Origin: Bacilli bacterium
GTDB taxonomy: Bacteria > Bacillota_I > Bacilli_A > RFN20 > CAG-826
Assembly (NCBI GenBank): GCA_035353055.1
Contig: DAOPYW010000001.1
Location: forward strand, 21,687 to 85,686
Length of the DNA stretch: 64,000 bases
Reading direction: 5' to 3'
Below the pieces are notes generated by a model. That model did no database searches, had not been told where the DNA came from, and saw only the letters and a program-made list of their open reading frames with translations. Made by a program: the position numbers and the translations under genes. Of this stretch, positions 1 through 61,076 are shown in pieces; within the stretch, counting starts at the first letter, position 1; every line of letters starts with the position of its first letter.

Positions 1-2331
1 GCGAGAATGAGCCAGGATTGGAAAGTGCGTTACCCATTAATTGATTTCCAAGGCAACAACGGCTCCATCGATGGCGATTCGCCTGCTGCCTATCGATATA
101 CTGAGTCAAGACTCAGCGAACTGAGCAATGAACTAGTTAAAAGCATCGACAAAAACACTGTAGACATGCAATTAAATTTTGACGATACTGAATTCGAGCC
201 AATCGTTTTGCCCAGCCGCTTTCCCAACTTATTATGCAATGGAACTGAAGGAATTGCAGTTGCTTTAGCAACTGAAATGCCACCCCATAATCTGAGAGAA
301 GTAATTGAGGCGATTATCTACCGCATCAATCACAAGACCGCCACAAGCGAAGAATTACTGACTTTTATCAAGGGTCCAGACTTCCCTGGCGGTGGCGTCA
401 TCTATGAATCTGAAGGGCTAAAGAACATTTACACAACTGGCCGCGGAAGAGTGGAGGTTGCAGCTAAAGCTGAGATTGTAAAAACTAAGGACCTTCAGCA
501 AATTGTCATCACCGAAATTCCTTATAAAGTGGTGAAAATTCAACTAGTCTATGAAATCGATAAAATCATCCATGCCAAATCAGTCAGCGGCCTATTAGAG
601 GTTCGCGACGAGAGCGATTGGAAAGGCATCCGCATTGTCATCGACTGCAAAAAAGATGCTCGCGCAGACTTGCTTTTGAAATACTTAATGAAGAAGACTT
701 CATTATTTTCTTCCTATTCCGCCAATATGGTCGCCATCGTCGATGGAAGGCCAAGAACTCTCACTTTGTTAGAATTAGTCGATGCTTATATTGCTCATCA
801 AGTGGATGTCATCACTCGTCAGAGCCAATTTGATCTGGCGAAATTCAATGAGCGATTGCATCTAGTTGTCGGTTTAATCACTGCTTCTCTTTCGATTAAC
901 GAAGTAGTGGATATCATTCGCAAAAGTAAAGATAAGGCCGATTCAAAAATCAACTTAAGCAATCGTTTTGGCTTCTCTAACGAACAGGCCGAAGCCATCG
1001 TCACCATGCCTTTATACAAATTGAGCCACACAGATGAAGAAGTTTTGGAAAAAGAGAAAATCCAGCTCGAAAAAGATATCGCGACACTTAATGAAATTCT
1101 CCAGGATTCCAATAAATTGAACCGCGTATTGATCAAAGATCTCAAGCAGATTAGTTTAAAATATGGCGATGATAGACGAACCGCTGTCGAAGGAAAAATT
1201 GAGATTGAGCCTATTGATAAGCGCGATTTAATCGCCAAAGAGAGCGTGATTGTCGCTGTCACAAGAGATGGCTACATCAAAAGATCTTCCATCAAATCTT
1301 TTAAAGGTTCGGGCAATGATTCTTTGCCAGGCATAAAGAGTGGCGATTGCCTCGTCAGTATGGGAGAAGCTTTTACTACTGATTATTTGATATGCTTCAC
1401 CAACTTAGCTAATTACACCTGCATTCCAGTGCATAAAATCCCCGATAACAAGTGGAAAGATGAGGGCGTCCACCTCAATACTTTCGTCACATTAGGTGCC
1501 GGAGAAAAAATCATCAAAGCTATCGTTGTCAGCAAGCTAAGAAATGACGTTTATCTTTCCGCATTGAGCCGCTTTGGACAAATTAAGAGAATGGCCAGTG
1601 ATGCTTTGGACTTCTCCAAAAGACCGCGCCTTTCCCGCTATATGCGTTTGTTGAGCACCGATGAAGTAATCGGAGTTCAAGTGTTGACCGGAAATAGCGA
1701 TTTACTAGTTTTAACTAGTAATGGTTATGCCACTCGCTTTAACGAAAACGAATTAGCGATTCTCAGCTCGAAAGCTGGAGGTGTTAAATCCGTGACTGGT
1801 TTGGGTAAAAATCAGACTGTGAGTTTGCTCGCTTTTGATGTCGATGAAAAATCAAAAGTCCTCATTTTCACTGATAAGGGCCATGAGCGCGTATTAGATC
1901 CTAATAAGGTTCCGTGCACGCCGCGCTTAGGAAAGCCAATGCTTGTCATGCCTTGCTTCAAAAGCGATATTCACTCTATCGTCAGTGCATGCAAAGCGAA
2001 GAGCCAAGTCGAAGGAGACTATATTGTTAATTTAAGCTTAAATGATCAGAGTGTCTTCTCCTATAAGATCGATGATTTATATCTAACCGATATAAATAAA
2101 TACGCCAAAAAGAATATTTCTATCCCAAGCAAAACACGGGTTGAATTGCTATTTAATGAAACGATTGATTATATCTATCAGGAATCTATTTCTCATCCAA
2201 TAATCGAAAAGGAAAGCAAGGAGAAAGAAACTGAAGAAAGCCAAAACATGGAAGAAGAAATCAGCGAAGGCAAACCTGGAGACGAACCTGGCACTTTTGA
2301 GCAAATATCCATATTTGATGATGATAAATAA
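1..2331 (+). CDS. Type IIA topoisomerase A subunit (GyrA/ParC family), 5'-truncated by the window edge
   Basis: The frame is open from position 1. The motif RYPLIDFQGNNGSIDGDSPAAYRYTESRL matches the GyrA/ParC breakage-reunion region. The C-terminal beta-pinwheel region ends in an acidic tail (…EEEISEGKPGDEPG…DDDK). Confidence 0.85.
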   Translation, partial: ARMSQDWKVRYPLIDFQGNNGSIDGDSPAAYRYTESRLSELSNELVKSIDKNTVDMQLNFDDTEFEPIVLPSRFPNLLCNGTEGIAVALATEMPPHNLREVIEAIIYRINHKTATSEELLTFIKGPDFPGGGVIYESEGLKNIYTTGRGRVEVAAKAEIVKTKDLQQIVITEIPYKVVKIQLVYEIDKIIHAKSVSGLLEVRDESDWKGIRIVIDCKKDARADLLLKYLMKKTSLFSSYSANMVAIVDGRPRTLTLLELVDAYIAHQVDVITRQSQFDLAKFNERLHLVVGLITASLSINEVVDIIRKSKDKADSKINLSNRFGFSNEQAEAIVTMPLYKLSHTDEEVLEKEKIQLEKDIATLNEILQDSNKLNRVLIKDLKQISLKYGDDRRTAVEGKIEIEPIDKRDLIAKESVIVAVTRDGYIKRSSIKSFKGSGNDSLPGIKSGDCLVSMGEAFTTDYLICFTNLANYTCIPVHKIPDNKWKDEGVHLNTFVTLGAGEKIIKAIVVSKLRNDVYLSALSRFGQIKRMASDALDFSKRPRLSRYMRLLSTDEVIGVQVLTGNSDLLVLTSNGYATRFNENELAILSSKAGGVKSVTGLGKNQTVSLLAFDVDEKSKVLIFTDKGHERVLDPNKVPCTPRLGKPMLVMPCFKSDIHSIVSACKAKSQVEGDYIVNLSLNDQSVFSYKIDDLYLTDINKYAKKNISIPSKTRVELLFNETIDYIYQESISHPIIEKESKEKETEESQNMEEEISEGKPGDEPGTFEQISIFDDDK

Positions 2332-2357
2332 ACATACTTTGTATGTTAATCAAAATA

Positions 2358-2385
2358 TTAGTAGTTTTTTAGTAATATTTTAGTA
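2358..2385 (+). repeat. Three TTAGTA direct repeats at exact 11-bp spacing (ATATTAGTAGTTTTTTAGTAATATTTTAGTA)
   Basis: TTAGTA occurs at 2358, 2369 and 2380. A 20-nt block is identical to the one at 16044-16063. Confidence 0.6.
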
Positions 2386-4459: not shown

Positions 4460-5533
4460 ATGAATAAAGTCATTTTCGGAGGAGGATTCGATCCGATTCA
4501 TCTCGGCCATATCAACATGGCACGCTTAGCTTCCAAGCATTTTGATGCGGATGTAATTTTTGTTCCATCCCCCATTTCAATTTGGAAAGAAACATCGACG
4601 CCCATCGAAGATAAGATTGAGATGATACGACTTTCCATCGAAGGGTATAAACGTTTCAGCATTGACCTGTTTGAAGCGAAAAGTGGCAAATCTCACAATT
4701 ACTCCATCGACACCGTCCGCTATTTTCATAGTAAATATCCCGAAGATCATCTTTTCTATCTCATCGGAGGAGATCAAGTCAATGAATTCCACCGCTGGAA
4801 AGAAGCTGATGAGCTATCAAAACTGGCTCATGTGATTTTTTTATCTCGCCCAGGTTTTGATTTGAGCAAAGAAAATATCGAAAAGTATCACATGCAAATG
4901 CTGCCAGGAAAAGTGGTGGATGTCAGCGCGACTGATATCCGCTCATTTCACTCTTTGAAAATCGACGACAAAGTAATTAAATATATTGAAGAAAATGAGC
5001 TTTATTACATAAAGAAGATAAAATCGTTCCTCAAAAGCAAAAGATATGATCATTCGAAAGCGGTGGCGAATCTATCTTATGACATCGCCAAAAAGCATCA
5101 TCTAAGAAATCGCGATCAATTCTATATTTCTGGATTCCTCCACGATATTGGCAAAGAACAAATCGGAAACGAAATAATGAAAGAGCATTTCTCAAAATAC
5201 GCGGACTTGCCAACTTTCGCCTATCATCAATTTGTAGGAGCCTATATTGCGAAGACAGAATTCAACATCACTAATCGCTCAGTCATTAAAGCAATTGCTT
5301 TTCACGCCACAGGAACCGCGAAGATGAACCGACTCGGAAAAGTCATCTACGCCTCTGATAAAATCGATCCCACGAGAGATTACGATTCAAATTACATGAT
5401 TGAGGCGATGATGAAAGATATCGACGAAGGTTTCAAGCTAGTTTTGAGCGAGAACAGGAAATTTTTAGAAGAGAATCGCAAAAATATCAACAATCGATTA
5501 ACAAAAGAGTGCTTTGAGAATTACCTCGGTTAA
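4460..5533 (+). CDS. nadD: Nicotinate-nucleotide adenylyltransferase NadD fused to a YqeK-type HD-domain hydrolase
   Basis: The N-terminus GGGFDPIHLGHINMA is the NadD (H/T)xGH motif. The C-terminal half has an HD motif (FLHDIGKE) like YqeK. The single ORF is 357 aa. Confidence 0.8.
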   Translation: MNKVIFGGGFDPIHLGHINMARLASKHFDADVIFVPSPISIWKETSTPIEDKIEMIRLSIEGYKRFSIDLFEAKSGKSHNYSIDTVRYFHSKYPEDHLFYLIGGDQVNEFHRWKEADELSKLAHVIFLSRPGFDLSKENIEKYHMQMLPGKVVDVSATDIRSFHSLKIDDKVIKYIEENELYYIKKIKSFLKSKRYDHSKAVANLSYDIAKKHHLRNRDQFYISGFLHDIGKEQIGNEIMKEHFSKYADLPTFAYHQFVGAYIAKTEFNITNRSVIKAIAFHATGTAKMNRLGKVIYASDKIDPTRDYDSNYMIEAMMKDIDEGFKLVLSENRKFLEENRKNINNRLTKECFENYLG

Positions 5534-5730: not shown

Positions 5731-5890
5731 CACTCGTAAAATATAGCACTTCGCATAATTTCCGTTATGTTAACTAGAATTAAAATATTGTTAGATATAT
5801 TCAGTATTTATTTTTTGCGAAATTCAAAATGTTCGCGGTTTAGTAACAGCTAATAAGTAAGTTTTCCACAGATAAGTTGTAGAAAATATC

Positions 5891-5907
5891 TACTAATTAT
5901 CTACTAA
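5891..5907 (-). repeat. Two TTAGTAG repeats (reverse orientation) at 11-bp spacing just 3' of the MazF-like gene stop
   Basis: Plus-strand TACTAA occurs at 5891 and 5902 (ATCTACTAATTATCTACTAA). Confidence 0.5.
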
Positions 5908-5909
5908 CA

Positions 5910-6491
5910 CTAAACACCACTTTTGTAATCATATTGCAATGTCAGGAGATTTATATAGGCTTGAGTAATCAATTCGACTTTGCGTTCTTCTAACCTATAC
6001 ACTTCATTAGCATGCGTGTCATATTCATTGAATTCTCCATCATTTCCAATCGCTAATTTTGTATAGATTCTCAATTTATCAATCGCTCTTATTTGATTGA
6101 TCACTGCCAAGGTGCTATGGCCGGTTTTTAAGCACTGAATGATTCCTAAATCCACATCGCTTCTAGGATGACCACCATTCTTGTTGCTTTTTAAGGGACA
6201 AACAATAACTAAAGGGTTATATTCTCCTGAGTCGGCGAGCACCACTCCAAAATGGCGATTTGAGAACTCGGCGTTGACGTTGATTCCCCAATCGAATTCT
6301 AAGATATCGCCTTTTTTCAAGTCGTAGCGCAACTTGTACTTCTCGGCAAACATTGAATATTCCAGTTGACGCTTAATCCAATCCAGCTGTTCCTTTCTTC
6401 CAATCATCTTGCTCGGCAACGAGCGATCATCGTAATCGGTGTTGTCGATCCAGCGATACTTTCCGCTTCCATAATAATTAGGGCCACTCAT
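5910..6491 (-). CDS. Extended PemK/MazF-family endoribonuclease-like protein (solo, no adjacent antitoxin ORF)
   Basis: The core KKGDILEFDWGINVNAEFSNRHFGVVL…PLVIVCPLKS…VINQIRAIDKLRI aligns with B. subtilis EndoA/MazF ([27 protein letters not shown]…QIRTIDKQRL). It has extra segments of about 55 aa at the N-terminus and about 45 aa at the C-terminus. The likely start is the ATG at 6491, preceded by AGGAGGG 8 nt upstream. The ORF-track start at 6527 would include the RBS. Confidence 0.6.
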   Translation of the reverse strand: MSGPNYYGSGKYRWIDNTDYDDRSLPSKMIGRKEQLDWIKRQLEYSMFAEKYKLRYDLKKGDILEFDWGINVNAEFSNRHFGVVLADSGEYNPLVIVCPLKSNKNGGHPRSDVDLGIIQCLKTGHSTLAVINQIRAIDKLRIYTKLAIGNDGEFNEYDTHANEVYRLEERKVELITQAYINLLTLQYDYKSGV

Positions 6492-6549
6492 AATAAATAC
6501 CCTCCTAGTAGACTTCGTTATCTCCAAAAAGCATAAAAGTTTGAAAAAT

Positions 6550-7835: not shown

Positions 7836-8717
7836 TTACTTTTTTCTCATATACAAATCATAAGCGCTCAAAATTCGTTTCGTTGAAACGTGAGTGTATA
7901 TTTGGGTGGTCGCGATATGAGCGTGACCGAGCATTTCTTGAACCGCGACCAGCTGGGCACCATTCTCTAAAAGATGGGTGGCAAAGCAGTGGCGAAGAGT
8001 GTGGGGAGAAATCGGGACATCGATTCCCGCTAGAGCGGCGTATTTTTTCACTTGTTTAAAGAAGAATTGCCGGGACAAAGGTTTTCCATATCTATTTAGA
8101 AATAGATACTTGCTATCTCTGCCCTGATTTTTGCATCGCACTTCATCGAGATATCTAGCGATGCATTCAATTGCGTAATCCCCTAGGGGAACCTTCCGCT
8201 CTTTGGCTCCTTTGCCTAGCACGGTTACAATGCCATTTTTGAGATTGGCTTTTCCTCTTTCCAGCATCAAAAGTTCGCTGACTCTCAGCCCCGTCGCATA
8301 CATGGTTTCAAGCATGGCGCGATCGCGGATGCCTTCGGGCTTTTCAGCATCGGGCATATCGAGCAAATGGTCGACTTCTTCGACAGTCAAGCAATGAGGC
8401 AAATGCTCGGGCTTTTTTGGCGATTCAATCTCCGGAATCTCATCTTGAAGATAGCCTTCGGTCTTTAAAAAGATGAAGAAGCTCTTCGTGGATGAAAGCC
8501 GGCGCAGAGCAGTTGAGGCTGACAGACCAATTGAAAACTCGTAGCGGAGAAAATCCAATAGATCAGTGCCGAGCAAATCATCGACTTGCTTTCGCTGCTT
8601 GAAAAATGCGAAAAATCGTTTCAAATCCTCTTGATAAGATTTTACTGTCTGATTAGCGAGGCCTTTTTCTGCCAGCAAATACTGCTCATATAGCTCAACG
8701 GCGTCTTGAATATCCAT
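7836..8717 (-). CDS. xerD: Tyrosine recombinase XerD/XerC family
   Basis: The C-terminal catalytic region HTLRHCFATHLLENGA…LGHAHIATTQIYTHV carries the R-H-R-Y residues. It is adjacent to deoB, as ripX-drm are in B. subtilis. Confidence 0.8.
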   Translation of the reverse strand: MDIQDAVELYEQYLLAEKGLANQTVKSYQEDLKRFFAFFKQRKQVDDLLGTDLLDFLRYEFSIGLSASTALRRLSSTKSFFIFLKTEGYLQDEIPEIESPKKPEHLPHCLTVEEVDHLLDMPDAEKPEGIRDRAMLETMYATGLRVSELLMLERGKANLKNGIVTVLGKGAKERKVPLGDYAIECIARYLDEVRCKNQGRDSKYLFLNRYGKPLSRQFFFKQVKKYAALAGIDVPISPHTLRHCFATHLLENGAQLVAVQEMLGHAHIATTQIYTHVSTKRILSAYDLYMRKK

Positions 8718-9958: not shown

Positions 9959-11809
9959 CTAAATAATTTTGATGACGTCTTCCGGCAGCAATGAAAACTC
10001 GGCTTTTTGCTCTTCAATGCAAGCGTGATTGACGAATACATTGGGAATAGCTTTGATCACAACTTGCCCAGCATAGCGATGCTTGAGCAATTCGGCGGCT
10101 AATGCTTGAGCGAATCCGCTTTCCGCAGCGTAAGGATCATAGATGACGATTTTCTCATAGCTTAATAAATCGATAATCGCATCTGAATCCATGGGTTTTT
10201 GATAGATAGCATTAAATAAAGTGACGGAAAGATCATTTTCCTTAATCAGCTCTTTGAGCTTTTCAATCTCGGGACCGACAGCTACGATGGCGATTTTGGA
10301 ACCAGTTAATTCTTTTATCCATTTCCCAAAGGGAATGGTGGCGATTTTCACGGGTGGCTGGTAGTGGAAAACTCTCTCGCGAGGGTAGCGAATGCAAAAA
10401 ACGCCATGATGATTAAATGATTCTTCCACCAAAGTGCGAGCTTGTTCTGGCGTGGCGGCCATGGTCACGACCGTATTGGGAATCCCCATCAAAAAAGCTT
10501 CATCAAAGATGCCTTGATGGGAATTGCCATCTTTGCCCACGAGCCCGCTGCGATCAATGAGCAGTGTGGCGTCGAGTTCAATTCTCGCTAAATCATGATT
10601 GACTTGGTCATAGGCTCTTTGTAAAAATGTTGAATAAATAGAAATGATGGGGTGGAAACCGCTAATTGAAAGACCTCCAGCCATCGTCACGGCGTGCTCT
10701 TCGGCTATGCCGACATCGATGCAGCGGTCCGGGAATTTCGCGAAGACTTCCGAAAGATGGCTTCCATAGCCAGTCGCAGGGACAATCGTCACAGCATCCT
10801 TATGCTCGCTCATTACTTCGATGAGATAATCATTAAAGATTTGCGACCATCCGACGCCATTTTCATATATTTGCTCGCCAGTTTCAGGATTGAAGACATG
10901 AACTCCATGCCACAATCCCTTATCATCATCTTCAGCGAGTTTATAGCCTTTTCCTTTTATTGTCTTTATAAAGACAACGACTGACTTATCGGTTCTCTTG
11001 GCTCTAATGAGGGCTTTTTCCATAGCTTTGATATTGTGGCCATCCACTGGGCCGATGACAGAGAAACCGAAGGAGTCAAAAATGTTTATTTTTAAAATGT
11101 GCCTTTTAAACCAGTTTTTCATCGCGACGCCGGAAGCATACATTTTGCGGCCGAGCTTAGTGCCGCACATTAATCTCTTGAAGAAGTGCTTGGATCGGCG
11201 ATAAAAAGAAGAGGTGGAAAAGCGACGAAATACTTTGGCCAAGCCGCCGACTGGTTTGGAAATTGACATATTGTTATCGTTTAAAACGATAATCATCTTG
11301 TGCTTGCTTGTCCCAGCATCATTGAGGCCTTCAAAGGCCAAGCCGTTGACAATTGAGGCGTCGCCGATAAAGGAAACAACATCATAATTCTCTTTTTTCA
11401 AGTCTCGAGCAGTCGCTAAACCCAGTCCAGCGCTGATCGAAGTTGAACTGTGCCCGGCTTCGAAGTGGTCATAGATTGATTCTTTGACATCTTGGTAGCC
11501 AGCGGTTCCATCTTTTTGTCTTAATCGTTCTAGAGAACGACCAGTCAATAATTTGTAGGTATAGCATTGATGCCCAACATCGAAAATTAATTTATCTTTG
11601 GCGAAGTTAAAGACACGGCATAGCGCAATCGTGGCATCCACGACTCCAAGATTTGATGACAAGTGACCACCGTTCTTTGCGGTGACGCGAATAATGTGCT
11701 TGGCGATGTCGTCGCTTAAGACATCTAGCTCTTGATAAGATAGGTCCTTCAAGAAATCTGGATTTCTAATGTTTGATAAATCAATGTGCTGTATATCTTT
11801 GGGTTTCAT
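9959..11809 (-). CDS. dxs: 1-deoxy-D-xylulose-5-phosphate synthase
   Basis: GGHLSSNLGVVDATIALCRVFN and DVGHQCYTYKLLTGR are the Dxs TPP-binding signatures. It is 616 aa. Confidence 0.9.
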   Translation of the reverse strand: MKPKDIQHIDLSNIRNPDFLKDLSYQELDVLSDDIAKHIIRVTAKNGGHLSSNLGVVDATIALCRVFNFAKDKLIFDVGHQCYTYKLLTGRSLERLRQKDGTAGYQDVKESIYDHFEAGHSSTSISAGLGLATARDLKKENYDVVSFIGDASIVNGLAFEGLNDAGTSKHKMIIVLNDNNMSISKPVGGLAKVFRRFSTSSFYRRSKHFFKRLMCGTKLGRKMYASGVAMKNWFKRHILKINIFDSFGFSVIGPVDGHNIKAMEKALIRAKRTDKSVVVFIKTIKGKGYKLAEDDDKGLWHGVHVFNPETGEQIYENGVGWSQIFNDYLIEVMSEHKDAVTIVPATGYGSHLSEVFAKFPDRCIDVGIAEEHAVTMAGGLSISGFHPIISIYSTFLQRAYDQVNHDLARIELDATLLIDRSGLVGKDGNSHQGIFDEAFLMGIPNTVVTMAATPEQARTLVEESFNHHGVFCIRYPRERVFHYQPPVKIATIPFGKWIKELTGSKIAIVAVGPEIEKLKELIKENDLSVTLFNAIYQKPMDSDAIIDLLSYEKIVIYDPYAAESGFAQALAAELLKHRYAGQVVIKAIPNVFVNHACIEEQKAEFSLLPEDVIKII

Positions 11810-11852
11810 TTATACTATTTTTCTACTAATTTTTAACTAGTGAAAATCATTT

Positions 11853-16032: not shown

Positions 16033-16047
16033 TTTATTTCCTCCATA

Positions 16048-16075
16048 TTAGTAGTTTTTTAGTATTTTTATAGTT
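16048..16075 (+). repeat. TTAGTA/TAGT direct repeats at 11-bp spacing immediately upstream of the tkt RBS
   Basis: TTAGTA occurs at 16048 and 16059, with TAGT at 16071. The block is ATATTAGTAGTTTTTTAGTA. Confidence 0.6.
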
Positions 16076-16101
16076 TTTATTATAAACAAAGTTTATAAAT
16101 G

Positions 16102-21577: not shown

Positions 21578-23353
21578 TTAGTTTTCAGCGAACTGCAGTT
21601 TGTAGAGCTTGTAATAATGCCCTTTTTGTTTCAGCAGCGATTGGTGATTGCCCTTCTCGATAATCTCACCATGCTGCAAAACGATGATTTGATCAGCCTT
21701 CTGAATGGTAGAGAGGCGGTGCGCTACAATAAGCATTGTTCCGATATTTTTCATCTTTTCCAGGGATGCTTGAATCAAGACTTCGGTTTCAGTATCAATA
21801 TTGGCGGTCGCTTCATCCAAGACGAGAATTTGTGGCTGGCTTAAAACCGTGCGAGCAAAGGAGATGAGCTGCCTCTGACCTTGGGAGTAGTTTTCTCCTC
21901 GTTCAATGACCATTTCATCCAAGCCTTTTTCGCTCTTGTTAATGAAGGAATCCGCATTGACATATTGGCAGGCTTGCATGATTTGCTCGTCTGTGTATTC
22001 ACTATCGTGTAGGGTAATGTTATCGCGCATAGTGCCCGAGAATAAGAAGACATCTTGAAGCATCTGGCCAATCTTCTTGCGCAGAGATTTTATTTTGATA
22101 TGTTTGATATCGATGTCATCAATGAGAATCTGACCTTTTTGAATCTCGAAATTGCGAACGATCAAGCCGAGAATAGTTGTCTTCCCTGCTCCGGTAGCAC
22201 CGACGAAAGCCACTGTCTGTCTGGGTTCGATGACAAAAGAGACGTCTTTGAGAATCCAGTTCTCTTTTTCATAGGCAAACCAAACATTGCGGAATTCGAT
22301 TTTTCCTTTGAAGTCTTCCACATCAATAGAATCAGATTCATCAAGCACTTCTGGCTGAATATCCAACAGATTAAATAGTCTTTCAGAAGCGGTGTTAGCC
22401 TTTTGAATGGCATTGAGTTGATCAGCGATATTTTGAACAGGGTTAAAGAAGCGGCTGACGTATAGATAGAATTCGACAGCTACGGCGGCAGTCATGGCGG
22501 AATTCATGCCAACGATAAAGGTGGTAATGATTGCAGCATAATACAAAACGGTGAGGGTTGGTCGATATAATCCAAACGCAAGGACTACTTGATAACGAGT
22601 TTTGCGGAGGTTTTCATTCTTGACTAAGAATTCCTGCTCTTTTCGCTTTTGCTGATTGAAAATTTGCGTGATTTTCATCCCGGATAAGTTCTCGTTAACA
22701 AAGGTGTTCATCTCAGAAAGATATTGCCGTTCTTTTTTGAAGACGCGATAGACGATCATGCGGAATAAATATGAGATTAAAAACACGACTAACAAGAATC
22801 CCAATTGTATTAATGCTAAGTACCAAGAAACAAGCAGCATCATGATGAAAACTACCACGACCATCAAGATGTTCTTCACGAGGTTGACCAGGACATTAGT
22901 GAACAAGTCGGACATCGAAGATGTGTAATTGGTCACGCGAGTGACGAGAGATCCAACTGGCATTTCGTTGAATTGATTTTGCGACATGCTCTCGATGTGC
23001 TCAAAGACTTCCATGCGGAGATTGTAAATGATCCTTTGACCAGATTTTTGGAGGGCAATTCCTTGGAAATAATAGAATATATAGGAGGTGACACTCAGGA
23101 TAAAATACCCGAGGGCAACCCAAATTATGTAGGATAGAGACGGCACGCCAGTGCCCACATCTAGTTCATCGACAATCATTCCAATAAACTGCGGCATGAC
23201 CGCTTCAATGGAGACGTTGACAATAATGAGCAAAAAAGCAAAAACAAACCACCAGATTTCTGGTTTGATATAATGCCAAAGCCGCTTCAAAAGAATCGAG
23301 AGCGGAATCTTTTTGTCGCCTTTTAAGCGTTCATTTTTGTCAAAATCGGACAT
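21578..23353 (-). CDS. ABC transporter ATP-binding/permease (type I exporter half-transporter)
   Basis: Six predicted TM helices are followed by an NBD with Walker A GATGAGKTT, the signature LSQGQRQ, and Walker B ILVLDEAT. Confidence 0.85.
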   Translation of the reverse strand: MSDFDKNERLKGDKKIPLSILLKRLWHYIKPEIWWFVFAFLLIIVNVSIEAVMPQFIGMIVDELDVGTGVPSLSYIIWVALGYFILSVTSYIFYYFQGIALQKSGQRIIYNLRMEVFEHIESMSQNQFNEMPVGSLVTRVTNYTSSMSDLFTNVLVNLVKNILMVVVVFIMMLLVSWYLALIQLGFLLVVFLISYLFRMIVYRVFKKERQYLSEMNTFVNENLSGMKITQIFNQQKRKEQEFLVKNENLRKTRYQVVLAFGLYRPTLTVLYYAAIITTFIVGMNSAMTAAVAVEFYLYVSRFFNPVQNIADQLNAIQKANTASERLFNLLDIQPEVLDESDSIDVEDFKGKIEFRNVWFAYEKENWILKDVSFVIEPRQTVAFVGATGAGKTTILGLIVRNFEIQKGQILIDDIDIKHIKIKSLRKKIGQMLQDVFLFSGTMRDNITLHDSEYTDEQIMQACQYVNADSFINKSEKGLDEMVIERGENYSQGQRQLISFARTVLSQPQILVLDEATANIDTETEVLIQASLEKMKNIGTMLIVAHRLSTIQKADQIIVLQHGEIIEKGNHQSLLKQKGHYYKLYKLQFAEN

Positions 23354-43308: not shown

Positions 43309-44223
43309 TTAAAAATTATCGAGCGAATTTTTGATCTCGCTGATGAGCGATTTTACTTCGTCGGGGTCGAGATTTTTTTCTTTGCATCTCTCGAGGAGAT
43401 GACCTTTTTCATCGCTGTTTAAATACTCGCTGGCAATTTGGAATAAAGCTTCGACGAGAATAGCGGTTTCAATATTTATTGACTGGGGATAAATGTAGAG
43501 GAGATGAGTGGAGAGAATCGAGACGGCGTTTTCGCTCAACACTGGGTTGCGATAAGCGGAGTCAAGAGCTTTCACTAACTGATTGAAAGAGTCTCCCACG
43601 AAGGGGGGCTCAAGTTCACTAGGATTCACCTTGATCATCTCTCCGATGTGATTGAATGAAAATGAGCGGTCGACTTTCTTTTGGACGAGGAGTAATAACG
43701 CGAGTGACCTAATTGACTGCTTAGGGAATTTGACCATGATGTTTTGGATATAATCCAAGAATTTGTTGATGTCTCTCTCGCGGACGATATCGATGGCCAT
43801 GAGAATAACGTCTGGGTCATCGCTCTCTAGCTTTTTGATTAGCTCCTCATCTTTTATGAAACGCATCGAGGAGTGCTTTCGCTCTTCTAATCTGATCATT
43901 TGTGGCATATCTCTTAAGAGCTCTTCCACTTCTTGGGAGACGTAAGGGCGATTTTTGTAGTATTCGAGAATCGCGTAGGCTTCATCAAAGCGCGTTAGCA
44001 GGCAGAGAATTTCGACATGGGTTTTGATCAATAGGCTCATATGAGATTCGAGAATCTTTTGGTTGCTGGTAATGGAGTTTAAAGCATCCTCTGTTTTTCC
44101 TACAGCGAGCAAAGCCGAAATACGATAGAACAAAGCGTTTGGTTCATCCGCGATTTCCGTGAGTTTGATGACCAAGTCATATTGTCTTTTGTCCATTAAT
44201 GTCTTTAAATTATCCATAGCCAT
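43309..44223 (-). CDS. Alpha-helical TPR-like hypothetical protein (positional equivalent of B. subtilis ysoA, upstream of tig)
   Basis: It is 304 aa and all-helical with repeat-like helix pairs. Its position upstream of tig is conserved. Confidence 0.45.
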   Translation of the reverse strand: MAMDNLKTLMDKRQYDLVIKLTEIADEPNALFYRISALLAVGKTEDALNSITSNQKILESHMSLLIKTHVEILCLLTRFDEAYAILEYYKNRPYVSQEVEELLRDMPQMIRLEERKHSSMRFIKDEELIKKLESDDPDVILMAIDIVRERDINKFLDYIQNIMVKFPKQSIRSLALLLLVQKKVDRSFSFNHIGEMIKVNPSELEPPFVGDSFNQLVKALDSAYRNPVLSENAVSILSTHLLYIYPQSINIETAILVEALFQIASEYLNSDEKGHLLERCKEKNLDPDEVKSLISEIKNSLDNF

Positions 44224-44224
44224 A

Positions 44225-44241
44225 TTAGTAGTTTATTAGTA
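44225..44241 (+). repeat. Two TTAGTAG repeats at 11-bp spacing abutting the start of the ysoA-like gene
   Basis: ATATTAGTAGTTTATTAGTAGTTTTTTG; TTAGTA occurs at 44225 and 44236. Confidence 0.6.
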
Positions 44242-44447
44242 GTTTTTTGTGTTTCCTTAACTTTGTTAATGTCATGTAGGTTATAGATTTTTCGATTCTC
44301 TTTTAAACAGCCAAATTTTATCTGACCAGGAAGAAGAATAACCAATCTGTTTTTCCTAACGCTTATTATACTGCATCTCCAACTTCTCACCAACAATTTG
44401 CGATATTTTTTGTTCTCTATTTCCAAGATTTGACTATAATAGTTACG

Positions 44448-45086: not shown

Positions 45087-45118
45087 AAAAGTAAGATGGT
45101 CGCCCATCTTACTTTTTA
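45085..45118. terminator. Bidirectional rho-independent terminator between convergent yggS and aguB
   Basis: The perfect hairpin AGTAAGATGG-TCGC-CCATCTTACT is flanked by an A-run and a T-run. Confidence 0.7.
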
Positions 45119-45983
45119 TGATTGTCAGTTACTGACAATTTTAATATGTCTTTGTAGAGGTCTACGCGGCGATCGCGGAAGACTCCCCAGCCTTCTCTTT
45201 CTTCGCTGATCTTCTTTAAATCAAACTCCACGACGCGGAAGCCGGTGGATTCGCGGTCCATCTCTTCGACGACGTTGCCATATTCATCGGAGATGAAGGA
45301 AGAGCCAAAGAAGGTCATGCTTGAGCCATCTTGCTCTTCAATTCCGACGCGGTTAGAAGCGATGACGGGAATGATATTCGCTGCCGCATGTCCACACATG
45401 ACGTTTTGCCAATGCGCTTTGCTGTCTTTAGGAAGGACAGGCTCACTGCCGATGGCAGTGGGATATAGCAAAATCTCCGCTCCTTTGAGAGCCATGATAC
45501 GCGCGGCTTCGGGGAACCATTGATCCCAGCAGATGCCGACACCTAAAATGCCATACTTTGTTTTAAAGGTTTTAAAGCCAGTATCACCGGGAGTGAAATA
45601 GAATTTTTCTTCGTAGCACTGGCCGGTGGGAATGTGCGATTTGCGATATAAGTCTACGACTTTGCCATCAGCATCGATGACTGCGAGGGAATTGAAGTAA
45701 CAATTGCCCGCTTTTTCAAAGAATGAAATGGGCAGGACGACATCGTATTTTTTAGCCATCTCTTGATAATGCTTGATCAAAGGAGAATCTTCGGCGGATT
45801 GCGCTAAAGCAAAATGATTGTAGTTTTCGGTCTGGCAGAAATAAGGGGCTTGAAATAGCTCGGGGAGAAGGATGATATTGGCACCTTTTTGACTGGCTAA
45901 GGCAATCAGAGCATCAGCTTGCTGAATGTTTTGCTCTAGTTGCCAAGACATCGACATCTGAGTGCAGCACACTTTAACTTTCA
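45109..45983 (-). CDS. aguB: N-carbamoylputrescine amidase (carbon-nitrogen hydrolase family)
   Basis: The nitrilase-superfamily triad context (…LLPELF…, …GICWDQWFPE…) is present. The start ATG has RBS AAAGGAG. Its first 10 nt overlap the speA-aguA 3' end. Confidence 0.75.
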
Positions 45984-48592
45984 TGTTTTGCTCCTTTGGG
46001 TATCTGCATAGTAACGCAGTGGATATTTCCACCACCAATCAATATTTCTTTGGAATAAATCTGGATGACTTCTTTATCGGGGAAGATGGCTTTGAATTGC
46101 TCTAGAGCAATCTGATCTTCCTTGACTCCGAAGCCAGGAATGATAACAAAGCGGTCGCTCTGATAGAAGTTGATGTAGGTCGCTAAGAGATTGTCGCCCG
46201 CTTGGCGAGGCTTAGCGTTGTAGCGGCTGGCGGAGATGCCTTTAGCTTCTTTAGTTGATAAATATATCGGAGCGGGCATCTTGACTTTAGTCACTTTGAG
46301 AGTTCGTCCATGAGCGTCTTTCGTGGTCTCGAGAATTTTTAGGGCTCTAGTGGCAGCGCTATATTGAACTTTGTCGGCGGTTGATGGCCAAGCCAGCAAG
46401 ACTTCGCCGGGGCGAGCAAACGCCACCATGTTATCGACGTGCTCATCAGTCTCATCGCCGATGATGCCATGGGGAATCCAGATGATGTCGTTGACGCCGA
46501 GGTATACTTTGAGGGTTTCCTCGATTTCAGCTTTGCTGAGATGAGGGTTGCGCCCTTTGGAGAGGAAGCAAGCTTCGGTGACGATGAGGGTGCCATCGCC
46601 ATCCGTGGCAATCGCACCGCCCTCCATGACGAAGGAAGGCAAGCGGTAACTTGAGAGCTTGAATTTCTTGACGATGTTATTGCCTAAGGCATCATCATCT
46701 TGATAGTTGGTGTATAAGCCATCGTACTCGCCGCCCCAAGCATTGAAGCGGAAGTCGACGCTGCGGATATCGTTCTGCTTGTTGCGCAGGAAAATAAGCG
46801 TGTTATCGCGTGCCCAAGCGTCGTTGTAGCGAACTTTGATGGGAATGACGTTGGGAATATTTTCGAGCCACGCAAGGCTCTTTTTATATATTGTCGGGTG
46901 AACTCCGACATAGACCTTTTCGAATTTTGCGATTGTCGCGATTAATTCGCGGTATTCTTCAGTAGCGTCTTTGGCGTGGTTGCGCCAGACATCGCTGCGG
47001 AAGGGCAGGAGGATGATCGTTCCATCATGCTTATCGCCTTCAAAAGGCAAGTAATAGCCATCTCTTCGGGGAGTAGTCTGCTCATTTTTGACGTAATCAT
47101 GCAATCTTTTCTTATAGAAAGAGAAGTTTTTCCATCTCTCTTCATCGACGATTTCCACTAGCTCGCAATTGGGATGATTGGATAAAATCGTGCACTGCTT
47201 GTTCAAGCCATCTTCGATTTGGAAGATGATGTCTTTGGAAAAGACTTCGCCCGCTTGGATGAGCGGGATTCCCGGAGGGTAGATGACAATGGATTCTTTG
47301 CTGATGTGATTCAAGGCTTGGCGGAGCGGAACTGCAAGGCTCGGAGCGAAGAAAGCCGTTCTCGGTCTGGCGAGCATAAAGCCATATTTAAAGGCAAAGG
47401 AATGCATCGGATAAGTCTGATTCTTGTGGAAGTGCTCTTTAGAGATGCTCTTCAGAGCTTTGACTAAGGCGTTGAGGTGAGCATCGGTCGTTCCGAGGGC
47501 TAAGATGCAGAGGATGACGTAGGTTTCCGCTAGCTCGACTTGCACATGGTAGCGAGTTTTTAAAAGGCGGTAGACTTCGTAGCCGTTGATATCGAGGCGA
47601 TCGAGTTCAATCAAGAGCTTGGTTTTATCGTAGTTAAAAGCCCCGGAGGATTTGAAGTAATCTTTCCCGCGGACGATGAAGCCGGGAATCTTGTTGATTT
47701 CATCAAAAGCTCTCTCGCTGATAGCGATTACTCGCTTGGAGACCTCTTCACCATGCTCAGCGATGTAAGCGCGAGCGGCATCCAAAGAGCCGATCAATAT
47801 TGAGCTCGGTGAGGTGGTATTCATAAGGTTGAGAGTCTCTTGAATCTTGATATTGGAGACGCGGTCACCTTTTAATAATAAAACCGAGGACTGAGTGAGC
47901 GAACCGGCGGTCTTATGGAAGGAGACGGAGCTGAGATCCGCTCCAGCATCCATCGCGGTGACAGGATCGTTGTTGGTCAAGTAGTAATGCGCGCCATGCG
48001 CCTCATCGACGATGACGGCCATGTTTCTCTCGTGGGCGAATTCCACGATTGAGCGCAGGTCAGCGATGACGCCAAAATAAGTCGGGTTGATCACGACAAC
48101 GGCTTTTGCGGAAGGATAGCGCTGGATCATTTTTTTATATTCCTCTAAAGAGGGTTGATTAGCAATTTCAATGTTCGCATCGATGTGGGGTTCCACATAG
48201 ATGGGGACGGCGCCAGAGAGAACTAAGGCGTTTGTTAAAGATTTATGGACATTGCGGGGAATGATGATCTTATCGGTCGGCTTGCAGACCGTCATCACCG
48301 CGGCGATGAGACCCGAAGAAGTGCCGTTAATTAAAAAATAAGCGTAGTCTGCGTGACAGACTTCCGCCATTAATTTCTCACTTTGCAAAATAACCCCGCT
48401 AGGGTGGGCTAAATTATCTAATCCATAAGGGGCATTGACATCGCATTGGTAGACCTTTTTGCCGACGAGATCAGTCATCTCATTTTTGATGTTGCCCATG
48501 TGGTGTCCAGGTACATCAAAAGGGGATATCCCTTCATTAACATAGCTCTTTAGAGCATCTACAAAAGGCGTCTGAATGTCTTTCTTGTCCAT
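45974..48592 (-). CDS. Fusion of Orn/Lys/Arg-decarboxylase-family arginine decarboxylase (N-terminal) and agmatine deiminase (C-terminal)
   Basis: The N-terminal half matches the SpeA-type PLP decarboxylase (FDVPGHHMG, SFHKTAGSL). The C-terminal half matches AguA (YNDAWARD, FNAWGG, KGRNPHLSK, GGGNIHCVTMQ). It is a single 872-aa ORF. Confidence 0.8.
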   Translation of the reverse strand: MDKKDIQTPFVDALKSYVNEGISPFDVPGHHMGNIKNEMTDLVGKKVYQCDVNAPYGLDNLAHPSGVILQSEKLMAEVCHADYAYFLINGTSSGLIAAVMTVCKPTDKIIIPRNVHKSLTNALVLSGAVPIYVEPHIDANIEIANQPSLEEYKKMIQRYPSAKAVVVINPTYFGVIADLRSIVEFAHERNMAVIVDEAHGAHYYLTNNDPVTAMDAGADLSSVSFHKTAGSLTQSSVLLLKGDRVSNIKIQETLNLMNTTSPSSILIGSLDAARAYIAEHGEEVSKRVIAISERAFDEINKIPGFIVRGKDYFKSSGAFNYDKTKLLIELDRLDINGYEVYRLLKTRYHVQVELAETYVILCILALGTTDAHLNALVKALKSISKEHFHKNQTYPMHSFAFKYGFMLARPRTAFFAPSLAVPLRQALNHISKESIVIYPPGIPLIQAGEVFSKDIIFQIEDGLNKQCTILSNHPNCELVEIVDEERWKNFSFYKKRLHDYVKNEQTTPRRDGYYLPFEGDKHDGTIILLPFRSDVWRNHAKDATEEYRELIATIAKFEKVYVGVHPTIYKKSLAWLENIPNVIPIKVRYNDAWARDNTLIFLRNKQNDIRSVDFRFNAWGGEYDGLYTNYQDDDALGNNIVKKFKLSSYRLPSFVMEGGAIATDGDGTLIVTEACFLSKGRNPHLSKAEIEETLKVYLGVNDIIWIPHGIIGDETDEHVDNMVAFARPGEVLLAWPSTADKVQYSAATRALKILETTKDAHGRTLKVTKVKMPAPIYLSTKEAKGISASRYNAKPRQAGDNLLATYINFYQSDRFVIIPGFGVKEDQIALEQFKAIFPDKEVIQIYSKEILIGGGNIHCVTMQIPKGAKHES

Positions 48593-52699: not shown

Positions 52700-52966
52700 T
52701 AATAGCCAAAGACAGTGCGAAAGAGAAAGATATCACGAATCTGATAGAGAGTTTGCGGTTGGTGGAAGCAAATAGAGAACGATATGCAATATACACTTTC
52801 AAGTCGAATCGCTGAACTGACAGTAGGCGACTCCGGAAATCCTCCGTGACAGGGATAAGAGTTATATGACTCGATGAGTGATGGCAAACGCCATAAGATG
52901 GGTGGTACCGCGGAAATCATACGATCTTCGTCCCATAACTAGGGGGAGAAGATCGCTTTTTATTTT
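52700..52966 (+). promoter_or_regulatory. T-box riboswitch leader upstream of a tryptophanase/tyrosine phenol-lyase-family gene
   Basis: The T-box motif AAGATGGGTGGTACCGCGG sits at 52894-52912. The terminator ACGATCTTC…GAAGATCG plus CTTTTTATTTT is at 52921-52966. TTGACA at 52671 serves as a -35. Confidence 0.75.
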
Positions 52967-52993: not shown

Positions 52994-54445
52994 ATGTCTC
53001 ACATCGCCCGCTTCAAAGCTGAGCCTTTCCCATTAGAGATGCACAAGGCTCGCATCGTCCAGAAAATCACTCTGTTACCAATCAAAGAAAGATTAAAAGC
53101 CATCCAAGGGGCGGGAAACAACACCTTCTTATTAAGAAATCGCGACGTCTTCCTCGATATGCTGACCGACAGCGGCACGAATGCGATGAGCAATGAGCAG
53201 ATCGCTGCGATGAATATCGCTGATGACGCTTATGCGGGAAGCGAGACCTTCTATCGCTTAGAGAAAGCCGTCAATCGCTTTTTCGGCACGAAGTACTTCT
53301 TGCCTGCCCATCAAGGCCGAGCTTGCGAGCACATCTTGGCCAAGCAATATGTCAAGCCCGGGGATGTCGTCCCGATGAACTATCACTTCACCACCACAAA
53401 GGCTCATATCATGGAATGCGGTGGCACGGTCGAAGAATGCTTCATCGATGAGGCAGTAAAAACCACTAGCAATTGCCCATTCAAGGGTGATATGGACATG
53501 GATAAATTAAGAGCCATCGTCAATAAAGTCGGGAGCAACCATGTTCCCTTTATCAGAATCGAGCTAGGCACCAACCTCATCGGTGGTCAGCCCATCTCTT
53601 TAAGAAGCATTAAAGAAGTCAGCAGCTTTGCTCGCAAAGAAGGGATCATGATGGTCATCGACGCGAGCTTATTAGCGGATAATCTCTACTTCATCAAGCA
53701 GAGAGAAACAGCCTATAAAAATGCTGATACTCAAACCATCGTTCACGAGATCGCCAAATGCGCGGATATCATCTATTTCTCCGCTCGCAAGTTGGCCTGT
53801 GCGAGAGGCGGTGGATTAGCGATGCTCAGCCAGAAATACTTCGATGATATGAAATCTCTGGTACCACTATATGAAGGGTTCCTCACCTATGGTGGTATGT
53901 CCGTCCGAGAGATGGAAGCCATGGCAGTAGGCTTAGAAGAGACCCTCGACATGGATATGATCTCTCAGGGTCCTGAATTCATCAGTGAGTTCGCCTCACA
54001 ACTGCAAAAAGAAGGTATCCCCATTGTCACCCCCGCGGGAGGATTGGGACTACATATTAACGCGAGAGAATTCTTGCCTCATATCCGCGGCGAGCAATAT
54101 CCCGCGGGAGTGCTGGCCACCGCCATCTACCTCATCACTGGATCAAGAGGCATGGAAAGGGGCACCATTTCTGAAGCGCGCAACCCCGATGGTAGCGAGC
54201 ACATCGCTTCTGTGGAACTCGTCAGATTAGCGATGCCAAGAAGAGTATTCACTCTATCTCATATCACCTTTATGGTTGATCGTTTAGCGTGGCTATATAA
54301 AAATCGCGACCTAATCGGTGGCTTAAAGTTCATCGAAGAGCCACAAGTGCTCCGCTTCTTTATCGGACGCCTAGGAGAGATCGGCGATTGGCAGGAACGA
54401 TTAGTAGATAAATTCATCGAAGACTTTGGCAAAGACGCCTTATAG
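52994..54445 (+). CDS. Beta-eliminating lyase (tryptophanase/tyrosine phenol-lyase family, PLP-dependent)
   Basis: It is 483 aa with …FLLRNRDVFLDMLTDSGTNAMS…AGSE…FYRLE…, a PLP-lysine region …FSARKLA…, and the C-terminal …LKFIEEPQVLRFF. It is colinear with TnaA/TPL. Confidence 0.8.
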   Translation: MSHIARFKAEPFPLEMHKARIVQKITLLPIKERLKAIQGAGNNTFLLRNRDVFLDMLTDSGTNAMSNEQIAAMNIADDAYAGSETFYRLEKAVNRFFGTKYFLPAHQGRACEHILAKQYVKPGDVVPMNYHFTTTKAHIMECGGTVEECFIDEAVKTTSNCPFKGDMDMDKLRAIVNKVGSNHVPFIRIELGTNLIGGQPISLRSIKEVSSFARKEGIMMVIDASLLADNLYFIKQRETAYKNADTQTIVHEIAKCADIIYFSARKLACARGGGLAMLSQKYFDDMKSLVPLYEGFLTYGGMSVREMEAMAVGLEETLDMDMISQGPEFISEFASQLQKEGIPIVTPAGGLGLHINAREFLPHIRGEQYPAGVLATAIYLITGSRGMERGTISEARNPDGSEHIASVELVRLAMPRRVFTLSHITFMVDRLAWLYKNRDLIGGLKFIEEPQVLRFFIGRLGEIGDWQERLVDKFIEDFGKDAL

Positions 54446-59627: not shown

Positions 59628-61076
59628 TTACTTGATTACCGTTTGAAAATCGTCATTGCTGATGTTGGTTTCATAGAAGCATTTGACCAACTTAATCATT
59701 TTTTCGATGTCGTATTTGCCGACGGTTTCGATGGCTGAGTGCATTGCCAACTGAGCGAGGCCGATGTCGCAAGTGTTAATTCCCAATTGGGCGCTTGTCA
59801 CTAGTCCAATTGTTGACCCACATCGGATATCGCTGTTGTTGTAGTATTCTTGAATAACAATATCGTTCTTTTTAGCGATGGACTTCACAACGGCACTGCT
59901 ATAGCCATCTGTGGCGTAGTTAGGGTGATGTTTGATGATTACTCCCTCGTTGAGCTTAACCATCTCAGAGGGGTCACTTTTCTCGGGATGAGCAGGATGA
60001 ACTGCATGACCATTATCAATCGATAGGGCGAATCCATTAGCGATGGCCTGATAATAATCATCTTTAGTTTTATTTAAAGCAGTATTGATTTTCTCTAGAA
60101 CATTAGCGAGGAAGATTGATTCCGCTCCCTGCTTGGATAAGCTGCCGATCTCTTCATTGTCAGTCGCGTAAAGCATGGATATTCCTTGCTCTCGGCAAGA
60201 AATAATCGCTTCGATAATCGCGTATAAACTAGTGAGATTGTCGATGCGAGGTGAGACAAGTAGTTCAGAGTCTAAGCCAGAATATGTTGGCTTGACAAAA
60301 GGAACGCAGTATAGATCACCATCCACGATTTTCTCATTAGGTAGCAAGGATAAATATAAGTTGTCGCATTTTCCGTATATTGGCAACATATCGCTTTGAT
60401 TCTTAAGTTCCATGCCCTCATTAACGGTTGGATTATGATGAATACATAAGCTAGGAATGTTCACATTGAAATCGCTGGATATCAGCCTTTGTTCGATACC
60501 ACTTTCGGTTTCGATAAAGACTCTCCCACCTATCTTTAGTGGGATATCTAGAAATGAATAATTAATTAAACTACCATAGCGTTCGACATTGATTCTTTTT
60601 CCTTCGGGAGAATCAATGACACTATTGCCCTTAATCTTTAAGGATGGGGAATCAGTGTGGCAAGAGGCAATATGAAAAGCATAGCGAGATAAATCACCGA
60701 CTTTAAAAGCGATGAGAGCGCTGCTGTTCTTTGTGACAAAATACTTGCCCCCTTCTTTGAGCTTCCACTCCTCGTGTTCTTTCAGTTCCACAAATCCTTC
60801 TTTGGCTAAAAGCACACATGCATTATGAGTTGCATGATAGGAAGTTAATGACTTATGTAAGAACTCAGTAATGGAATCATTTTCTAGTTCTGATTTAAAA
60901 AGAAATTGATCAGGGTCAATCATCAAGATCTTCGCTAACTTATCAATGATTTTGCTGGGAATCGAAGAATCATCTCTTTCATAATTTCCATAGGCTTGTT
61001 GAGAAATACCAAGTTTATTTGCTATTTCGGCTTGTGTTAATCCGCATTTCTTTCTAAAAAATTGTAATTTTGACAT
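59628..61076 (-). CDS. XRE-family HTH domain fused to an M18-family aminopeptidase
   Basis: The N-terminus LTQAEIANKLGISQQAYGNYERD is a Cro/C1-type HTH. The remainder carries the M18 signature ASCHTDSPSLKIKG and DNGHAVHP…CGSTIG. Confidence 0.75.
   Translation of the reverse strand: MSKLQFFRKKCGLTQAEIANKLGISQQAYGNYERDDSSIPSKIIDKLAKILMIDPDQFLFKSELENDSITEFLHKSLTSYHATHNACVLLAKEGFVELKEHEEWKLKEGGKYFVTKNSSALIAFKVGDLSRYAFHIASCHTDSPSLKIKGNSVIDSPEGKRINVERYGSLINYSFLDIPLKIGGRVFIETESGIEQRLISSDFNVNIPSLCIHHNPTVNEGMELKNQSDMLPIYGKCDNLYLSLLPNEKIVDGDLYCVPFVKPTYSGLDSELLVSPRIDNLTSLYAIIEAIISCREQGISMLYATDNEEIGSLSKQGAESIFLANVLEKINTALNKTKDDYYQAIANGFALSIDNGHAVHPAHPEKSDPSEMVKLNEGVIIKHHPNYATDGYSSAVVKSIAKKNDIVIQEYYNNSDIRCGSTIGLVTSAQLGINTCDIGLAQLAMHSAIETVGKYDIEKMIKLVKCFYETNISNDDFQTVIK

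Follow-up and report, generated by a model that had tools for sequence, protein, structure and literature searches.

The 64,000-nucleotide stretch analyzed here (hereafter the window; positions 21,687 to 85,686 of contig DAOPYW010000001.1, assembly GCA_035353055.1) comes from a member of the Bacilli assigned to RFN20, CAG-826, and has a G+C content of 43%. It carries five short arrays in which a TTAGTAG-type unit is repeated head to tail every 11 bp, and a sixth orthologous site is found outside it. These arrays are a real, selected cis-element. There is about an even chance that they serve as double-stranded DNA sites for one sequence-specific protein, which would bind head to tail on one face of the helix with an architecture of the OmpR/PhoB winged-helix type. 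We class the arrays as a newly described instance of the direct-repeat operator array, an already known class. Their more unusual aspect is the conserved spacing that one of them keeps to dif, the Xer dimer-resolution site of the chromosome. No account of a TTAGTAG-type motif was found in the searchable literature. The lineage is known only from metagenome-assembled genomes recovered from various public metagenomes and has no described regulators, and the motif offers an experimental handle on its possible main global DNA-binding protein. The motif also points to unusual control of several central genes, namely tkt, dxs, the parC/yqeG junction and ysoA-tig-lon.

An earlier sequence-only reading of the window had reported TTAGTA hexamers at 2358/2369/2380, 16048/16059 and 44225/44236 on the plus strand and at 5891/5902 on the minus strand, and every one of these coordinates is correct. 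It counted four sites, and all four stand, but a fifth array has to be added. The hexamer at 11824, which had been taken for a weaker single copy, is in fact part of a three-unit array (CTAGTT-N5-TTAGTA-N5-ATAGTA, 11813-11840, minus strand) that is seen once mismatches are allowed. TTAGTA-N5-TTAGTA has five matches in the window where dinucleotide shuffles give an expectation of 0.01. The shared block of about 20 nt that the same reading described is likewise borne out, as the 20-mer ATATTAGTAGTTTNTTAGTA has three matches against 0.01 expected; it is identical at two sites of the window and agrees at 19/20 positions at the third. The lone TTAGTA hexamer is not enriched (14 observed, 18 expected), and 11 of its 14 copies fall in the five arrays. 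Since the lone hexamer is unenriched and the phased pairs are enriched, the signal is the phasing. With TAGTW as the half-site, nine phased pairs are found in the window, all of them within 4.1 kb of intergenic DNA, against an expectation of 0.18 (0.09 when intergenic composition is used). The spacing of TAGTA pairs forms a single spike at 11 bp, to which the window contributes six pairs and 184 kb of sequence from relatives another 22, with zero pairs at 10 or 12 bp in the same DNA and a small harmonic at 22. The enrichment of the phased pattern is several-hundred-fold.

The unit derived from 43 distinct instances is tA-TTAGTAG-WTTW. Position 0 is T in 36 and position 6 is G in 35 of the 43, and spacer positions 7-10 contain no G and at most two C. 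The half-site is TAGTA, with TAGTT as its degenerate form (WACTA on the other strand), and each array has two to four units that all point the same way. Tandem operators of the MraZ and CtsR type are direct repeats with a 10-bp period, built from GTGG-type or GGTCAAA half-sites. The arrays do not belong with them, as their period is strictly 11 bp and their half-site is unrelated.

The genes near the arrays are parC followed by yqeG-yqeH-yhbY-nadD/yqeK on the plus strand, and a PemK/MazF-like gene, deoB, an xerD-like gene, dinB, dxs, xseBA, nusB, tkt, aspS, hisS and relA on the minus strand. Array 1 (2355-2385, plus strand) has three units, ATA-TTAGTAG-TTTT-TTAGTAA-TATT-TTAGTAT, and lies in sense orientation, with 24 nt separating it from the parC stop codon upstream and 115 nt from the yqeG start downstream. 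A hairpin, AACATAC-TTT-GTATGTT (2331-2347, plus strand), is located directly after the parC stop and just 5' of the array. In relatives its stem is altered on both sides (ACATAC/GTATGT, AACAC/GTGTT, ATACAC/GTGTAT) with the pairing and the TTT loop kept. Array 2 (5880-5907, minus strand), TTAGTAG-ATAA-TTAGTAG-ATAT-(TTTCTA), comprises two exact units and a degenerate third. It begins 3 nt past the stop codon of the PemK/MazF-like gene and lies beside dif. Array 3 (11813-11840, minus strand), CTAGTT-AAAAA-TTAGTAG-AAAA-ATAGTAT, has three units and lies in sense orientation between the xseB stop codon and the dxs ATG (11809), with its end 3 nt ahead of that ATG. The dxs gene (9959-11809, minus strand) is without a Shine-Dalgarno sequence here and in all relatives examined, while neighbors such as tkt have GGAGG; the place of the dxs ribosome-binding site is occupied by array 3.

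Array 4 (16045-16075, plus strand), ATA-TTAGTAG-TTTT-TTAGTAT-TTTT-ATAGTT, is antisense to tkt; its third unit, ATAGTT near 16070, is degenerate. Read along the tkt strand, its sequence is AACTAT-N5-TACTAA-AAAAC-TACTAA, followed after 3 nt by the GGAGG ribosome-binding site. The aspS stop codon is followed by a palindromic hairpin, TTATAAAC-TTT-GTTTATAA (16080-16098, minus strand), whose 3' arm holds a TATAAT located 14 nt upstream of the array. This TATAAT is found in four of six species and is, judged by sequence, a candidate -10 box for tkt. Across species the hairpin keeps its stem through a C-G to T-A change, whereas its loops are variable. Array 5 (44222-44241, plus strand), ATA-TTAGTAG-TTTA-TTAGTAG, is antisense to a ysoA-like gene (43309-44223, minus strand) and abuts its start codon, with no Shine-Dalgarno sequence between array and ATG in this species. 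A palindrome, TTAAC-TTT-GTTAA (44257-44269, plus strand), lies 15 nt from array 5, and the resulting hairpin-N15-array layout is the same as that at tkt. The palindrome is identical in a trigger-factor locus of one relative (L173), and an analogous AT palindrome is present in another (L175).

Conservation was followed in three sets of syntenic loci. Transketolase homologues led to loci L140-L143 (78-85% identity), NadD-YqeK homologues to L144-L147 (54-76% identity) and trigger-factor homologues to L173-L175 (65-78% identity). GCA_035403865.1 and several ENA, Logan and JGI metagenome assemblies carry an identical transketolase. The syntenic loci amount to about 250 kb, and the exact TAGTA-N6-TAGTA pairs in them are confined to sites orthologous to the arrays of the window and to one site 3' of plsY, just outside the window; a few additional pairs appear in loci retrieved by pattern scans. 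At the orthologous sites the half-sites are unchanged, and spacers and flanks diverge. Loss at orthologous sites, which the sequence-only reading had named as an outcome that would speak against its motif, was not found; the arrays are kept in up to eight related genomes in which the flanks have diverged. The aspS|tkt intergenic region is the clearest case of footprint conservation. There, the 17 nt TACTAAAAAACTACTAA are invariant and form the longest such block in a six-species alignment with a mean column identity of 74%, and this block lies 3-8 nt ahead of the Shine-Dalgarno sequence across species.

The array between xseB and dxs has two or three units, and its gap to the dxs ATG downstream is 0-5 nt in seven of eight related genomes and 19 nt in L147. 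This array is kept in L141-L144 and L147, and also in the more distant L128/L138 and L154, which came from pattern scans. The array 3' of parC is kept in L144-L147. The array upstream of the ysoA-like gene is kept directly before the ribosome-binding site or ATG in L173 and L175 and is degenerate, with three phased units, in L174. Because it stays in place in L175 despite a different upstream neighbor, it belongs to the ysoA-like gene and not to the divergent yggS. Array 2 is kept in L141, L143, L144, L145, L147, L139 and L154, the copy in L147 standing at a locus without a called PemK-like gene. Two observations concern the region of array 4. In L144, tkt is not at the aspS-adjacent position. 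Three independent assemblies from the species of the window (L003, L004 and L005) all start within the 3' end of aspS, 137 nt ahead of tkt, which suggests either a recurrent assembly break or a strain-variable junction beside the array.

The exact 11-bp register, the A/T-only spacers and the strand-independent use of the arrays are all predicted by tandem protein binding on double-stranded DNA. TAGTA is on the sense strand of the adjoining gene at parC, plsY, the PemK-like gene and dxs, whereas TACTA is on it at tkt and ysoA, and each orientation is conserved at its own locus. Conserved use in both orientations is left unexplained by an RNA signal and points to recognition of double-stranded DNA. 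Well-known boxes of the OmpR/PhoB family include the pho box, the WalR box (TGTWAH-N5-TGTWAH) and the CiaR box (TTTAAG-N5-TTTAAG). A further example is RR_1586 of Clostridioides difficile, which binds two copies of DRTTAAGNWWW (PMC6222199). The arrays have in common with these boxes head-to-tail half-sites of 6-7 bp, a centre-to-centre distance of 11 bp, an A/T-rich spacer and two to four units. The boxes can replace a -35 element or overlap transcribed DNA, and the arrays may do so as well. On the other hand, TTAGTAG fits none of the consensus sequences, half of the sites follow genes or adjoin ribosome-binding sites, and one keeps a phased distance from dif. The sequence-only reading had likened the repeats to binding arrays of OmpR/PhoB-type or similar winged-helix factors. 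The geometry agrees with that comparison (head-to-tail half-sites of 5-7 bp, an exact 11-bp period and A/T-only spacers), but no regulator was found in any fetched locus.

The protein that binds the arrays would probably be a clade-wide global or architectural regulator of an uncultured, Erysipelotrichaceae-like lineage of Bacilli. The tkt and ysoA-like arrays each lie downstream of a -10-like box and ahead of the ribosome-binding site; a protein bound there would block RNA polymerase and so act in repression or as a roadblock. In the distant genome of L134, htpG is preceded by an array of four units and then, 2 nt further on, by a TATAAT and a CIRCE half-site; in that position the array may replace the -35 element, which would suit activation. 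The arrays 3' of parC, plsY and the PemK-like gene, together with the dif-phased array, may represent an additional barrier or architectural use. The factor would thus be dual-purpose, acting by site as a repressor or roadblock, possibly as an activator, and as a barrier or architectural element. With the precedent of ArcA and ArgR, discussed below, a phased site at dif would be compatible with a factor of the regulon type. Three arrays adjoin a ribosome-binding site or start codon, and two of these are antisense to the gene; the plsY array lies past the stop codon and ahead of a terminator hairpin. A simple activator regulon is unlikely, since several sites are 3' of genes or against the ribosome-binding site, and the positions are no less compatible with a repressor/roadblock or architectural role. 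The earlier proposal of a regulon motif therefore stands as far as a selected cis-element is concerned, but the arrays share no common promoter geometry and a set of promoters activated by a response regulator is not supported.

Several results weigh against binding by an OmpR/PhoB-type protein. No OmpR-family gene was found in the window or the fetched loci, either by tblastn with PhoB or in Pfam tables. The arrays have no consistent distance to -35/-10 elements, and a promoter/terminator scan was uninformative, its counts being at chance level. Stop codons directly precede three of the six orthologous sites, an unusual setting for an operator. The adjoining genes (tkt, dxs, parC/yqeG, plsY and ysoA-tig-lon) share no obvious physiology.

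The dif site beside array 2, ACTTCGCATAA-TTTCCG-TTATGTTAACT, is located at 5748-5775 on the plus strand. In seven related genomes its arms are conserved and its central 6 bp are variable. It matches the experimentally defined dif sites of Escherichia coli, GGTGCGCATAATGTATATTATGTTAAAT, and Bacillus subtilis, ACTTCCTAGAATATATATTATGTAAACT (PMC3025954). The gene blocks of the window converge at about 5.7 kb, and since dif lies between these convergent blocks the window spans the replication terminus. The sequence-only reading had not noticed a terminus. An xerD-like gene (7836-8717) is 2 kb from dif and parC is 3.4 kb from it. Array 2 lies on the XerD-arm side of dif, and the distance between the two is 121, 131, 131, 133, 133, 135, 135 and 143 bp in eight genomes. 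The pairing of array 2 with dif is kept down to about 42% NadD identity (L139 and L154) and is among the most deeply conserved of the sites.

Alignment revealed a conserved box, GTGGAAAAC(T/C)NAC (5857-5869, minus strand), between array 2 and dif. It is present in L139, L141, L143-L145 and L147 at about 91-96 bp from dif, is absent in L154, and belongs to no known family. The distance from the start of array 2 to the GGAAAA of the box is 39 bp in five genomes, 40 bp in one and 50 bp in one (L143). The outlying distances, both from array 2 to dif and from array 2 to the box, differ from the others by about one helical turn. A semi-conserved GATAATATC is also seen about 25 bp from dif. Relative to dif, the arrays are positioned at about -9, -3.4, +0.13, +6, +10 and +38 kb, so that five of the six orthologous sites are within about 10.5 kb of dif and one is in the remaining 48 kb (binomial p of about 0.007, computed post hoc). 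To the left of dif the arrays are oriented -,+, and to its right -,-,+,+. The G-C skew is positive on the plus strand over 20-56 kb, although the genes there are on the minus strand, and it shows no change of sign at dif within the window.

Two specific models were rejected. A fork trap of the Ter type fails because the orientations -,+ / -,-,+,+ lack two opposed permissive groups. A reading of TGTGGAAAA with TAGTAG as a DnaA box and DnaA-trio was dropped in view of the variable initial base of that box (GGTGGAAAAC), the non-contiguous trios and the location at the terminus. It is quite unlikely, but conceivable, that a factor specific to the terminus and dif acts here. Array 2, the GTGGAAAAC box and dif would then form a helically phased nucleoprotein complex, either a chromosomal counterpart of the plasmid sites cer and psi or a new polar barrier, and the other terminus arrays would be barriers or anchors rather than classical operators. 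If the spacing between array 2 and dif is functional, accessory architecture, so far attributed to plasmid Xer sites, can also belong to a chromosomal dif. The spacing would then also be a test case for terminus organization in Firmicutes without RTP.

Among the alternatives to binding by one OmpR/PhoB-type protein, a more general one is that the arrays bind a protein that organizes or protects the terminus, be it a Ter/RTP-like barrier, a matS/MatP-like organizer or a cer/psi-like Xer accessory factor, with gene regulation being incidental. We consider this unlikely, though it draws on the presence of dif between convergent gene blocks, on the clustering of five of six orthologous sites near dif and on the near-constant, roughly helically phased distance of the dif-adjacent array in eight genomes. 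RTP is a winged-helix protein whose Ter core contains TACTAA, with A and B sites about 16 bp apart. ArcA is an OmpR-family regulator whose half-sites are direct repeats with an 11-bp period. The accessory sequences of cer and psi flank the XerC arm, and no accessory sequence is known to be required by a chromosomal dif site. RTP and Tus sites can double as autoregulatory sites, and dif lies between the innermost ter sites (PMC10331603). Like these systems, the arrays are clustered, short, asymmetric and putatively protein-binding sites in the terminus region around dif; unlike them, they have a different repeat geometry and orientations unfit for a fork trap, and no gene for an RTP- or Tus-like terminator protein was seen in the Pfam tables of the syntenic loci. 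At cer and psi, which are Xer sites of plasmids, ArgR and ArcA serve as accessory factors within accessory sequences of about 180 bp (PMC9113270). The arrangement at array 2 may resemble them in that the site of a global regulator, here a putative one, is on the order of 100 bp from the XerCD core within a fixed nucleoprotein architecture, with ordinary regulon sites for the protein elsewhere. It differs in that the array adjoins a chromosomal dif on its XerD-arm side, opposite to the arm flanked in cer and psi, and no PepA-like partner is shown. A terminus-specific element also has difficulty with the three arrays that are tightly tied to start codons and with the arrays of distant genomes beside lepA, htpG, nrdG and rsmH, which have no dif within their 8-kb loci. 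The arrays could also be high-affinity nucleation sites for an oligomerizing, minor-groove-binding winged-helix nucleoid protein similar to Rok of B. subtilis and not for a classical transcription factor. The preferred 5-mers of Rok, TACTA and AACTA (PMC6212790), are the invariant and the degenerate half-site of the arrays, and placement in intergenic DNA, at 3' ends and near genes suits an architectural protein. Nevertheless, this is very unlikely, as homologues of Rok are reported from some Bacillus species alone and the protein disfavors A-tracts (PMC6212790), yet the spacers are often T5-6 or A5-6. Rok binds dispersed AT-rich regions without a fixed register, and neither a strict 11-bp register nor orthologous conservation is known for its targets. 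TACTA occurs at 0.36 times the expectation from composition but at 1.06 times that of a Markov-3 model, and AACTA at 0.95-1.24 times, so these words are not specifically avoided as they are in genomes with Rok. No Rok homologue is annotated in the fetched loci.

The remaining alternatives dispense with a DNA-binding protein. That UAGUAG repeats act in RNA, as seeds of small RNAs, as protein sites or as stops in three frames, pairing with or opposing CUACUA in the 5' untranslated regions of tkt and ysoA, is highly improbable. Most arrays do show TAGTA on the coding strand of the gene that precedes them, and they often fall between its stop codon and a terminator hairpin; the array 3' of parC is a perfect 20-nt complement of the tkt 5' untranslated region in this genome; and three units at an 11-nt period put TAG in all three frames (11 mod 3 = 2). 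Against this, both orientations are conserved at their own loci, and an exact 11-nt register lacks a rationale for single-stranded RNA, where TAA or TGA would also do as stops. In the array-to-dif region, which is the best sampled, RNAalifold gave -1.8 kcal/mol with essentially no covariation, and no Rfam family was found at the arrays at gathering or permissive thresholds. Pairing of a small RNA with its target was tried and rejected, since in the genome of L141/L146 the tkt spacer is AAAAAC and the sense arrays have GATATT, GATTAT and GAAAAT, so that complementarity is lost. Cleavage sites for MazF were also rejected, since arrays persist where no PemK-like gene is called (L142 and L147) and an 11-nt register is meaningless for an RNase. 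A comparable case may be the abundant intergenic direct repeats of the heptamer TAACTGA in Beggiatoaceae, which are described as sets of repeats and for which post-transcriptional action is proposed (PMC4679880). They are like the arrays in being lineage-specific short direct repeats in intergenic DNA near gene starts with no known binder, and are unlike the arrays, which have a strict 11-bp helical register on either strand. Protein-independent curvature, with phased A/T tracts bending the DNA as a generic promoter-upstream or terminator-flanking module, could draw on the T5-6 or A5 tracts that several arrays have in helical phase. It is hardly credible, because the invariant part is TAGTA(G) and not the tracts, the spacers vary freely and include the non-tract sequences GATAAT and GATATT, and positions relative to promoters are inconsistent. 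A chance match of low-complexity sequence or a recently spread mobile repeat of the REP/MITE type might account for a 20-mer that recurs nearly unchanged at three sites of one genome, and the collection-wide numbers of 20-mer matches, mostly in AT-rich DNA, are near a rough chance estimate. The probability of either is negligible and footprinting, as judged from the aligned sequences, refutes both in practice: only 0.01-0.2 matches are expected in the window, the arrays hold their orthologous positions in species whose flanks have diverged, all repeats are direct, with neither terminal inverted repeats nor target duplications, and there is no presence/absence polymorphism among relatives except at one wholly rearranged locus (L142).

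The wider distribution of the arrays was surveyed with strict scans for the 20-mer, which gave 14 single matches in 185,579 species genomes and 25 in JGI metagenomes. These were mostly chance-like matches in AT-rich DNA. A few were orthologous sites, namely those in L128/L138 and L154 (dxs), L139 and L154 (dif-adjacent) and L168 (tkt). A scan of viral contigs with a 14-base version of the motif returned only noise among the matches listed. In two metagenome-assembled genomes of Mycoplasmatales (L127, 1790-1855; L129, 3992-4038), two inverted arrays about 30 bp apart are found upstream of rsmH (mraW), which is the usual place of MraZ boxes. The exact 20-mer also forms a lone AT island in two G+C-rich contigs, L126 (60% G+C) and L151 (70% G+C), and it occurs in contigs of Methanosarcinales (L136/L161) within a stretch of many TAGTAG units spaced at 10-11 bp. 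A chance origin is unlikely for these occurrences in G+C-rich and archaeal contigs.

Some other features of the window deserve mention. The PemK/MazF-like gene next to array 2 (5910-6527, minus strand) encodes a protein of 205 aa with a 70-residue N-terminal extension, and no antitoxin gene adjoins it. It is kept beside deoB in most relatives and is not called there in L142 and L147. PDB sequence searches with the ysoA-like protein, the PemK-like protein and a 223-aa unknown protein gave nothing useful except weak similarity to MazF. NadD is fused to the HD-domain phosphohydrolase YqeK in a single 357-aa protein (4460-5533, plus strand), and the fusion is kept across the lineage. An 872-aa fusion of an Orn/Lys/Arg decarboxylase with an agmatine deiminase (PAD_porph; 45974-48592, minus strand) is followed by a carbon-nitrogen hydrolase (45109-46038, minus strand), and together they look like a fused arginine-to-putrescine pathway. 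A T-box leader (52706-52938, plus strand; 101.5 bits) precedes a beta-eliminating lyase similar to tryptophanase and tyrosine phenol-lyase (52994-54445, plus strand), which is an unusual T-box target. Finally, an XRE-type helix-turn-helix domain is fused to an M18 aminopeptidase in a 482-aa protein (59628-61076, minus strand) that is reminiscent of the DNA-binding PepA.

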